Shown here one piece after another: positions 1,878 through 2,662 of a stretch of 7,062 nt of DNA. Numbering within the stretch: position 1 is the first letter of the stretch; each line of letters opens with the position of its first letter. The notes beneath the pieces were generated by a model. That model was not told the DNA's origin, ran no database searches, and worked only from the letters and a program-made list of their open reading frames with translations. Position numbers and translations under genes: made by a program. The DNA lies in the IMG/VR virus record IMGVR_UViG_2579778797_000011, positions 1 to 7,062 of that record. One strand, 5' to 3'. The stretch comes from a virus (lineage: Duplodnaviria; Heunggongvirae; Uroviricota; Caudoviricetes).

Positions 1878-2126
1878 ATGGCAAAAGGTGTGTCAATTTC
1901 TCCAACTACGGTAAGAATCCCTGAATCTTTACGCGAGGCTCTTGCTGTCAGAGCATCAAAAAATGGTCGCTCTGTTAACTCCGAGATCGTCATGATTTTG
2001 CAAGCCGCGATTGATGAAGATAGGTCGCCAAAGTCAGTTGAGTCATTTGCTCAGCAAGAAGCTGACAAATTCAAAGAGGCGCTGCTTGAGACGCTAAAGA
2101 CCATGTATGGTAAGGATGAAAAATAA
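1878..2126 (+). CDS. Mnt-like ribbon-helix-helix repressor, 82 aa
   Basis: Preferred start ATG at 1878 (MAKGVSISPTTVRIPESLREALAVRASKNGRSVNSEI...ETLKTMYGKDEK), not the upstream ATG at 1836. Shares the NGRSVNSEI motif with P22 Arc/Mnt, has a C-terminal tail resembling Mnt (Mnt ...DTLKDLYKKTT), and is the same length as Mnt. Its stop TAA (2124-2126) overlaps the next ATG (2126-2128). Confidence 0.75.
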   Translation: MAKGVSISPTTVRIPESLREALAVRASKNGRSVNSEIVMILQAAIDEDRSPKSVESFAQQEADKFKEALLETLKTMYGKDEK

Positions 2127-2662
2127 TGCTGCACACAATTCATTTCTTATGCCCCGTTAACACTGCCACTGTTGGGCAACTTCAGAACCACTGTCTCACC
2201 GCATTATCTCAAGGCGCAACTGAATTAAATATCCATATATCAAGTCAGGGAGGGGAAACTGCCGCTGGCTTTACTGCGTATAACTTTCTTAAGTCACTCC
2301 CTGTTACCGTTAGAACTCACAACATAAGCAATGTTGAATCCATAGCTAATATCGTTTTCCTGGCTGGCTCAGAACGTTTCGCAAACCCATTATCAAGATT
2401 CCTGTTACATCCTCTATTATGGTGCTTTGCCTCCCCAGCCGCCGACCATGCCAGATTGAGAGAGTACGGGAAATGCCTCGATAACGATCTTGATCGCTTC
2501 GTTGAGACGTTCAATATCGACATCGGAACCCATATTAGGTGGGCATCCCTGATAGCAGACTCGACCATTTTGGATGCTAACAAGGCTCTTGAGCATGGCA
2601 TAATTAATTCCATAAAAACTGCAAGGCTGGCATCCAATCAGGCAAACTGGTGGGTTGTTTGA
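2126..2662 (+). CDS. Stand-alone ClpP-fold (S14-like) serine protease, 178 aa, shortened at the N-terminus relative to ClpP
   Basis: By-eye alignment to E. coli ClpP: IHISSQGGETAAGFTAY vs IYLYINSPGGVITAGMSIY; SIANIVFLAG vs SMGAFLLTAG; LLHPL vs MIHQP; C-terminal LDANKALEHGIINSI vs LSAPEAVEYGLVDSI. Putative triad Ser72 (2339-2341), His95 (2408-2410), Asp145 (2558-2560), with ClpP-like spacing. Lacks roughly the first 25 residues of mature ClpP. Translationally coupled (TAATG) to the Mnt-like gene. Confidence 0.7.
   Translation: MLHTIHFLCPVNTATVGQLQNHCLTALSQGATELNIHISSQGGETAAGFTAYNFLKSLPVTVRTHNISNVESIANIVFLAGSERFANPLSRFLLHPLLWCFASPAADHARLREYGKCLDNDLDRFVETFNIDIGTHIRWASLIADSTILDANKALEHGIINSIKTARLASNQANWWVV

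Follow-up and report, generated by a model that had tools for sequence, protein, structure and literature searches.

The locus examined here raises the question of what a ClpP-like protein does in a temperate phage, and of how the joining of its gene to that of a repressor should be read. It lies in a stretch of Caudoviricetes DNA of 7,062 nucleotides (nt) (IMG/VR record IMGVR_UViG_2579778797_000011, positions 1 to 7,062), the whole of which is called the window hereafter. An earlier note, made from the letters of this DNA, had described a two-gene operon in which a gene for an Mnt-like ribbon-helix-helix (RHH) repressor (mnt) is followed, through a TAATG overlap, by a gene for a minimal ClpP-fold protease (clp). 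This arrangement was borne out by the sequence, by Pfam and by alignment with Mnt of phage P22. Judged from its sequence, the 178-amino acid (aa) product of clp belongs to a family of short ClpPs whose characterised member is PpClpP1 of Pseudomonas plecoglossicida, and is a phage-borne member of it. Proteins of this kind have become known only very recently, whereas their recurrent capture by prophages and the joining of one of them to an mnt operon are undescribed. Our literature search turned up no article that deals with a role of a short ClpP in phages or prophages, and the sole mention of a "prophage-encoded clpP" that it returned is an unexamined annotation in a Staphylococcus prophage (PMC7029219). 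The view that such an arrangement has no characterised function is accurate for the phage operon; it overlooks the homologue PpClpP1 (PDB 9UXT, PMC12900304).

Fold and catalytic residues of the short ClpP

The ClpP fold, first proposed from sequence signatures, was confirmed by profile, model and structure comparisons. The protein matched the Pfam profile CLP_protease (PF00574) with 44.4 bits, for a cutoff of 20.2, its residues 24-165 lying on positions 37-180 of the 182 in the profile. The AlphaFold2 monomer model had a predicted local distance difference test (pLDDT) score of 90.5, and its top structural matches in the PDB, as found by Foldseek, were all ClpP proteins, with template modelling (TM) scores of 0.70-0.92. 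Canonical ClpPs accounted for scores of 0.70-0.79, and the best match, with a TM score of 0.92 and about 38-40% identity, was chain A of 9UXT, PpClpP1, which was also the closest solved relative in a sequence search of the PDB (E=1.6e-35, residues 3-175). Scores against the NCBIfam ClpP equivalog models remained far under the cutoffs (19-40 bits vs 228-361), and a structure search of BFVD returned no viral protein above 25% identity to the window protein.

PpClpP1, described in February 2026, is an N-terminally truncated protein of 183 aa, which forms a homotetradecamer with an unusually wide pore of 42.7 A (PMC12900304). Its peptidase activity is about 13-fold under that of its canonical paralogue, it does not bind ClpX and, alone, it degrades neither GFP-ssrA nor FITC-casein, whether ClpX is added or not. 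Together with the canonical ClpP2, it forms a stable heterotetradecamer, which binds ClpX and is slightly more effective than ClpP2 alone in degrading substrates. Its triad was reported as Ser-His-Pro: activity is abolished by S73A and by H96A, and is kept when the Pro is changed to Ala or Asp (PMC12900304). Prophages are not mentioned in that paper. We considered whether the PpClpP1 gene might itself be prophage-borne, and rejected this, as it is chromosomal in Pseudomonas, beside genes for KGG stress proteins. It should be noted that the Pro of the "third triad" position is residue 150 by count in the 9uxt chain (HMMER alignment) and P151 in the paper, the other residues named there (S73, H96, G44-S47, S117, D121) being in agreement with the chain; the mismatch is possibly an off-by-one in the paper or in the construct.

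Residues of the window protein were mapped by alignment with ClpP of E. coli MG1655, and their conservation was followed over 29 close homologues and in a 14-sequence alignment. Like canonical ClpP (E. coli; MEROPS S14), the protein has Ser72 and His95 at the positions of Ser97 and His122, both invariant in the 29 and the 14 sequences, Gly43 at that of the oxyanion Gly68, and conserved handle residues D134, H138 and R140. The triad put forward in the earlier note, Ser72/His95/Asp145, therefore stands for its Ser and His and falls for its Asp: Asp145 aligns with Arg170 of ClpP and varies among homologues (D/N/Q/K/S/A/T), and the canonical Asp171 position is occupied by Ser146, which aligns with the Pro of PpClpP1. 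At this position the 29 close homologues carry S, A, T or G and the Pseudomonas proteins, PpClpP1 included, carry Pro. The aligned Asp is thus not conserved, and the canonical position is acidic in only one relative among those compared, a Glu in an actinobacterial metagenome-assembled genome.

The protein also differs from canonical ClpP at its N-terminus. The alignment starts at about residue 39 of the E. coli precursor, and about 24-25 residues of the mature protein, which comprise the axial loop and helix A, are missing, in agreement with the loss of about 25 residues noted earlier. Since the N-terminal docking and gating region is lost, a direct partnership with ClpX or ClpA is not expected, as had also been argued before. 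In line with this, the residues which we take to form the pocket for the IGF/LGF loops of ClpX and ClpA in ClpP (Y60, Y62, F82, I90, M92, F112, L114 and L189) are N35, H37, S57, H65, I67, F85, N87 and K164 in the window protein, and these positions are mostly polar across the short ClpP family. As read from the alignment, the protein keeps the Ser-His catalytic pair without the ATPase-docking features that were examined, and departs from canonical ClpP in three respects, namely the triad Asp, the N-terminal gate and the ATPase pocket.

The resemblance to PpClpP1 extends to length (178 vs 183 aa), to the absence of the N-terminal axial loop and helix, and to a Ser-His pair combined with a non-acidic residue at the Asp position. 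Unlike PpClpP1, which is chromosomal and has no RHH partner, the window protein is encoded by a phage, its gene is coupled to mnt, and its last residues form a conserved NWWV tail. This C-terminal Trp-rich tail (NWWV(T)C or HWWN; residues 174-178 in the window) is conserved in enterobacterial and beta-proteobacterial short ClpPs and was modelled as a beta-strand; it might, speculatively, fill the degenerate pocket for ATPase docking. Purifying selection acts on the gene, with a ratio of nonsynonymous to synonymous substitution rates (dN/dS) of 0.08 relative to the Pectobacterium homologue; dS was saturated in most homologue pairs, so that the usable values are few and range from 0.08 to 0.23.

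Coupling to mnt and distribution of the family

The stop codon of mnt (TAA, 2124-2126) gives its final A to the ATG of clp (2126-2128), on the same strand. The pairing of the two genes was surveyed over 80 IMG/VR loci. Among the 43 intact loci with at least 80% identity, the mnt gene ended exactly at the clp start in all except one (42/43), and an RHH neighbour was found at none of the 35 loci with 75% identity or less, which are prophage homologues, all stand-alone. The conserved pairing with an RHH gene considered in the earlier note thus holds for close relatives and is lost beyond them; coupling to Mnt belongs to one lineage.

The alignments indicate that the RHH protein is a genuine Mnt orthologue. 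It aligns with P22 Mnt over its full length, one of the Mnt alleles found upstream of clp has the same residues 1-56 as P22 Mnt, and divergent arc-ant genes were present at every coupled locus whose neighbours were read. The junction GATGAAAAATAATGCTGCACA is near-identical (0-3 substitutions, with TAATG always kept) across at least five Mnt alleles. Mnt itself is a mosaic at these loci (L055-L101 of the survey), with at least five N-terminal operator-specificity alleles and one shared C-terminal helix, ...ETLKTMYGKDEK, a sign of recombination inside mnt. One insertion in an ancestor would account for this pattern, the 3' end of mnt and clp having then spread as a block by recombination within mnt. 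In the best reading of these data, the coupling to Mnt is a route to expression in one lineage and reflects no functional partnership of the two proteins.

The short ClpPs form a sizeable, distinct family. A profile search over 1.84 billion cluster representatives yielded 241 clusters at E<=1e-30, with a length of about 180-200 aa for most of the 150 listed. In Pseudomonas, the chromosomal members (L036-L041) are consistently flanked by genes for KGG-repeat general stress proteins and by a DUF6555 gene, which hints at a stress-response role of chromosomal members. In Massilia, the chromosomal members lie, at several loci, directly downstream of a conserved 117-aa open reading frame (ORF), which we take to be uraH from our own reading, without a domain scan.

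Of 5,426 complete E. coli genomes, 78 contained the mnt-clp DNA at a coverage of at least 80%, and about 7,900 blocks of a public assembly collection are indexed with the identical 178-aa protein. In all ten loci read, this protein directly followed mnt with the stop/start overlap, and in most of them the pair lay between gene 16 and the arc-ant-tailspike genes of a P22-like prophage, the tailspike often being an endosialidase. Many of the carriers examined have P22-type prophages with endosialidase tailspikes, presumably CUS-3-like. A P22-like prophage of Pectobacterium has a clp copy of 80% identity, likewise coupled to mnt, and in the lambda-like phage PhiR12_1 tail genes K and L flank the same cassette, as they do in the window.

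Relatives were found in prophages of Klebsiella, Pectobacterium, Pantoea, Proteus, Leclercia and Chromobacterium. A lone short ClpP gene separates the lysis cassette from terminase in prophages of Leclercia and Klebsiella, and the tape measure gene from baseplate genes in a myovirus-type prophage of Pantoea; it adjoins gene N in a lambdoid prophage of Proteus and, in one of Chromobacterium, has tail-fibre genes on one side and lysis genes on the other. Of the 35 loci with no more than 75% identity, at least 16 had opposite-strand genes on both sides, and the downstream neighbour was on the opposite strand in 31 of the 34 loci having one. No consistent second partner of the stand-alone homologues was found: upstream ORFs of 182 aa and of 170 aa at some Klebsiella-type loci are not shared between loci and have no Pfam match. 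In one group of prophage loci (L124-L131), the 182-aa ORF (about 3374-3922, plus strand) lies 79 nt upstream of a short ClpP gene of 52% identity, on the same strand, and may be a co-inserted cargo gene.

Possible roles in the lysogen

In P22 lysogens, the promoter Pmnt is active and Pant is repressed by Mnt. Expression in the lysogen is therefore expected of any gene coupled to mnt, and clp, through its translational coupling, would be expressed together with the maintenance repressor. The explanation that we tentatively prefer, while holding it somewhat short of probable, is that the short ClpP may be an accessory ClpP subunit expressed in the lysogen, which would remodel host Clp proteolysis through mixed rings. 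By analogy with PpClpP1, its heptameric rings would stack with host ClpP rings into mixed tetradecamers, and host ClpX or ClpA would dock on the host-ClpP face of the hybrid. The output of ClpXP and ClpAP in lysogens would be altered, with lysogeny regulators, proteins of superinfecting phages and host stress regulators as possible targets. A more specific version, which we consider doubtful, would have the short ClpP of temperate phages of Enterobacterales act as a docking-deficient, gate-less "hijacking" ring that caps host ClpP, the altered throughput or specificity of the hybrid stabilising lysogeny or blocking superinfection.

The gene has the signature of an accessory gene: it lies in a low-GC cassette, and its distant homologues stand alone at five other prophage positions, mostly between opposite-strand genes. 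The slot downstream of mnt is a place for genes of the prophage state, as P22 has orf59a and sieA there, which supports the earlier proposal of an accessory-gene slot in the immI region. In P22, the gene after mnt is orf59a, upstream of the annotated mnt terminator; sieA comes next and has a promoter of its own. The earlier statement that P22 has no gene coupled to mnt is accurate as regards translational coupling, the 59-aa orf59a being separated from mnt by a gap of 100 nt without overlap, whereas clp is joined to the end of mnt by TAATG; it misses that orf59a lies between mnt and that terminator.

Two-paralogue systems offer the closest parallel for such a role. In the ClpP1/ClpP2 pairs of Listeria, Mycobacterium and P. 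aeruginosa, a weak or atypical paralogue works by stacking with a canonical ring, and the ATPase docks on one face only. The Foldseek matches 4ryf and 4u0g, with TM scores of 0.78-0.79, come from such systems, and Listeria ClpP1 also lacks the canonical Asp, having a Ser-His-Asn triad (cited in PMC12900304). Both paralogues of these systems are host genes of about full length, whereas here a prophage would supply the second subunit to a host with a single clpP.

Several points weigh against an accessory subunit. Expression of clp in the lysogen is extrapolated from P22. The residue pair that we presume to act as the ring-ring "sensor" of canonical ClpP, Arg170-Asp171, is D145-S146 here, which could change stacking. 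The chromosomal members in Pseudomonas and Massilia indicate that the family is not intrinsically a phage function. As far as we could establish, the heterocomplex has been demonstrated only for the Pseudomonas protein, 38-40% identical, with its own ClpP, and PpClpP1P2 gave just a small increase of ClpXP activity, "slightly higher" (PMC12900304).

The open pore of PpClpP1 lends itself to another explanation, in which the short ClpP would form an autonomous homotetradecamer whose ungated pore admits unfolded proteins, and would destroy ejected or nascent proteins of superinfecting phages as a cytoplasmic exclusion or defence factor. The homo-14-mer and the 42.7 A pore of the homologue are in its favour, as are the position of the gene, which is that of P22 sieA/orf59a beside gene 16, and the occurrence of homologues as opposite-strand accessory genes at known prophage hotspots. 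We nevertheless regard it as unlikely, given that PpClpP1 alone is inactive on FITC-casein and GFP-ssrA, with its about 13-fold lower peptidase activity, and that the ClpP-like protein matched no family among the PADLOC-DB v2 defence models at E<=1. Regulation of the lysis-lysogeny decision appears rather improbable. Here the protease, alone or with host Clp, would degrade leaky Ant, Arc or the repressor fragments left after RecA-stimulated cleavage, and would tighten or time induction. The gene is indeed embedded in the immI antirepressor circuit and coupled to Mnt in one lineage, and a precedent is reported for S. aureus, where induction requires the ClpXP-dependent removal of repressor fragments (PMC10584840). 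However, homologues of 50-75% identity lie far from immI and immC, beside lysis, tail or baseplate genes, so that the link to immI looks incidental.

The layout of the operon, in which an RHH gene precedes a larger enzyme gene and overlaps it, is typical of type II toxin-antitoxin systems, and a toxin or abortive-infection effector had been among the roles first suggested. The RHH protein would then neutralise or repress a toxic protease, to be released upon infection. We rejected this very improbable reading, as the RHH protein is orthologous to P22 Mnt, with the allele identical over residues 1-56 and the divergent arc-ant genes at the coupled loci read, and the distant homologues lack an RHH partner (0/35); the implied dependence on the RHH protein is thus not supported. 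In addition, the same clp is found with at least five different Mnt alleles, the chromosomal homologues of Pseudomonas and Massilia are solitary, and PADLOC gave no match. Hardly any credit is left for a protease of prohead maturation, intact or decaying. ClpP-related head maturation proteases do give the best matches in PHROG (phrog_94, 7.3e-21) and NCBIfam (NF045542, 5.2e-13), and one phage record annotates the gene so. These matches reflect distant homology through the ClpP fold, the score for NF045542 being 49 bits against a cutoff of 120. Genes of prohead proteases are found on the late strand, between those for portal and capsid, and often include a fused scaffold, whereas the short ClpP gene of the window is solitary, antiparallel to the tail and other late genes, and outside the head module, as already pointed out in the earlier note. 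In every context examined, it was antiparallel and occurred in immI, tail, lysis or early regions and never in a head module. In the Leclercia prophage, a ClpP-type prohead protease of 284 aa is encoded in the head module and the short ClpP apart from it; the latter is therefore a separate accessory gene, and this coexistence and the gene position led us to reject the head-protease reading. To our knowledge, heads of P22-like and lambda-like phages are made without a ClpP-type protease. A dN/dS of 0.08 argues against decay.

ClpXP and ClpAP control replication initiators, repressor fragments, antitoxins and RpoS, and phages evade or exploit these proteases; we know of no phage that supplies its own ClpP ring. 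An accessory subunit that forms hybrids with host ClpP would be a new way for prophages to reprogramme host proteostasis, and a hijacking subunit would represent a new class of prophage immunity or host-remodelling factor, acting by exchange of protease subunits. The characterised homologue PpClpP1 provides a concrete, testable mechanism for a gene that is common in E. coli with P22-like prophages. Hybrid proteases would also explain a frequently mis-annotated gene, whose names "ATP-dependent Clp protease proteolytic subunit" (RefSeq) and "head maturation protease" (one phage record) are misleading. If the gene has no measurable effect, it is an ordinary accessory gene.

Layout of the window and of its immI cassette

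According to ORF calls, Pfam and a GC scan, the window consists of a lambda-like tail operon on the minus strand, interrupted by two low-GC blocks (Table 1). The second of these contains a complete P22-type immI module, with divergent mnt and arc RHH genes, sar and ant in the order of P22, and sits between the lambda-like tail genes K and L. The full arrangement is present in eight complete E. coli genomes at 91-95% identity, and the mnt ORF is annotated by PGAP in E. coli as WP_001051912.1.

Table 1. Features of the 7,062-nt window and the evidence for each.
Feature	Position	Strand	Evidence or remark
ant, P22-type antirepressor	446-1414	-	Pfam P22_AR_N 9e-45, P22_AR_C 2.5e-26
Low-GC block 2: 2.3-kb cassette	446-2700		39-47% GC vs 55-64% for tail genes
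sar antisense RNA	1349-1416	+	Rfam RF00262, 95.6 bits (gathering score 43), E=3.4e-20
67-aa Cys-rich ORF between arc and ant	1411-1614	-	phrog_7150 3.4e-50 (function unassigned in PHROG)
arc, Arc-like RHH repressor, divergent from mnt	1611-1799	-	Pfam Arc 8.5e-12
arc/mnt divergent control region, candidate operators and candidate Pant/Pmnt promoters	1800-1877	.	Sequence features
mnt, 82-aa Mnt-type RHH repressor	1878-2126	+	Pfam Arc 9.6e-11, FitA-like_RHH 2.1e-08
TAATG stop/start overlap	2122-2130	+	AAGGA ~10 nt upstream; read from sequence
clp, short ClpP paralogue, 178 aa	2126-2662	+	Pfam CLP_protease 2.2e-11
GC-rich hairpin between convergent clp and gene L	2693-2710	.	Scores as minus-strand terminator
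Tail gene L	2719-3459	-	ORF and Pfam; convergent with clp
Low-GC block 1: OmpC-type porin gene, full-length	3627-4790	-	Porin_1 1.3e-140
Tail gene M	4997-5338	-	ORF and Pfam
Tape measure gene, C-terminal part	5331-7025	-	ORF and Pfam

The module resembles P22 immI in its gene order, divergent mnt and arc, sar RNA, Ant domains and accessory slot downstream of mnt; it differs from it by the extra 67-aa Cys-rich ORF between arc and ant and by its location inside a lambda-like tail operon. This ORF, which overlaps each of its neighbours by 4 nt at a place where P22 has no gene, encodes two Cys pairs (CCFC...CSDC) and is zinc-ribbon-like. The sar match shares sequence with both the 5' end of ant and the 3' end of the 67-aa ORF. 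Between arc and mnt, a perfect 12-nt inverted repeat, GATAGCAAAGTG / CACTTTGCTATC, lies at 1802-1813 / 1843-1854, its arms 29 nt apart, and a sigma-70-like leftward promoter (1828..1800) is overlapped by an AGATA...TATCT palindrome. The repeat and the palindrome are candidate Arc/Mnt operators, in a layout that parallels the annotated Pant, Pmnt, Oarc and Omnt of P22. The hairpin downstream of clp probably also ends the mnt-clp transcript, on the plus strand.

The interval between gene 16 and mnt in P22-like prophages is a variable cargo hotspot. At one surveyed locus (L023, 8586-9610) and at similar ones, which are endosialidase-tailspike P22-like prophages and probably CUS-3-like, a 149-aa protein of the YafO toxin family and a 188-aa protein are encoded downstream of clp on the opposite strand; other prophages carry a P63C-domain protein there. 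In the window, the OmpC-type porin gene is inserted between tail genes M and L, with flanks of 32-37% GC, as it is in the eight complete E. coli genomes; it probably encodes a porin of lysogenic conversion.

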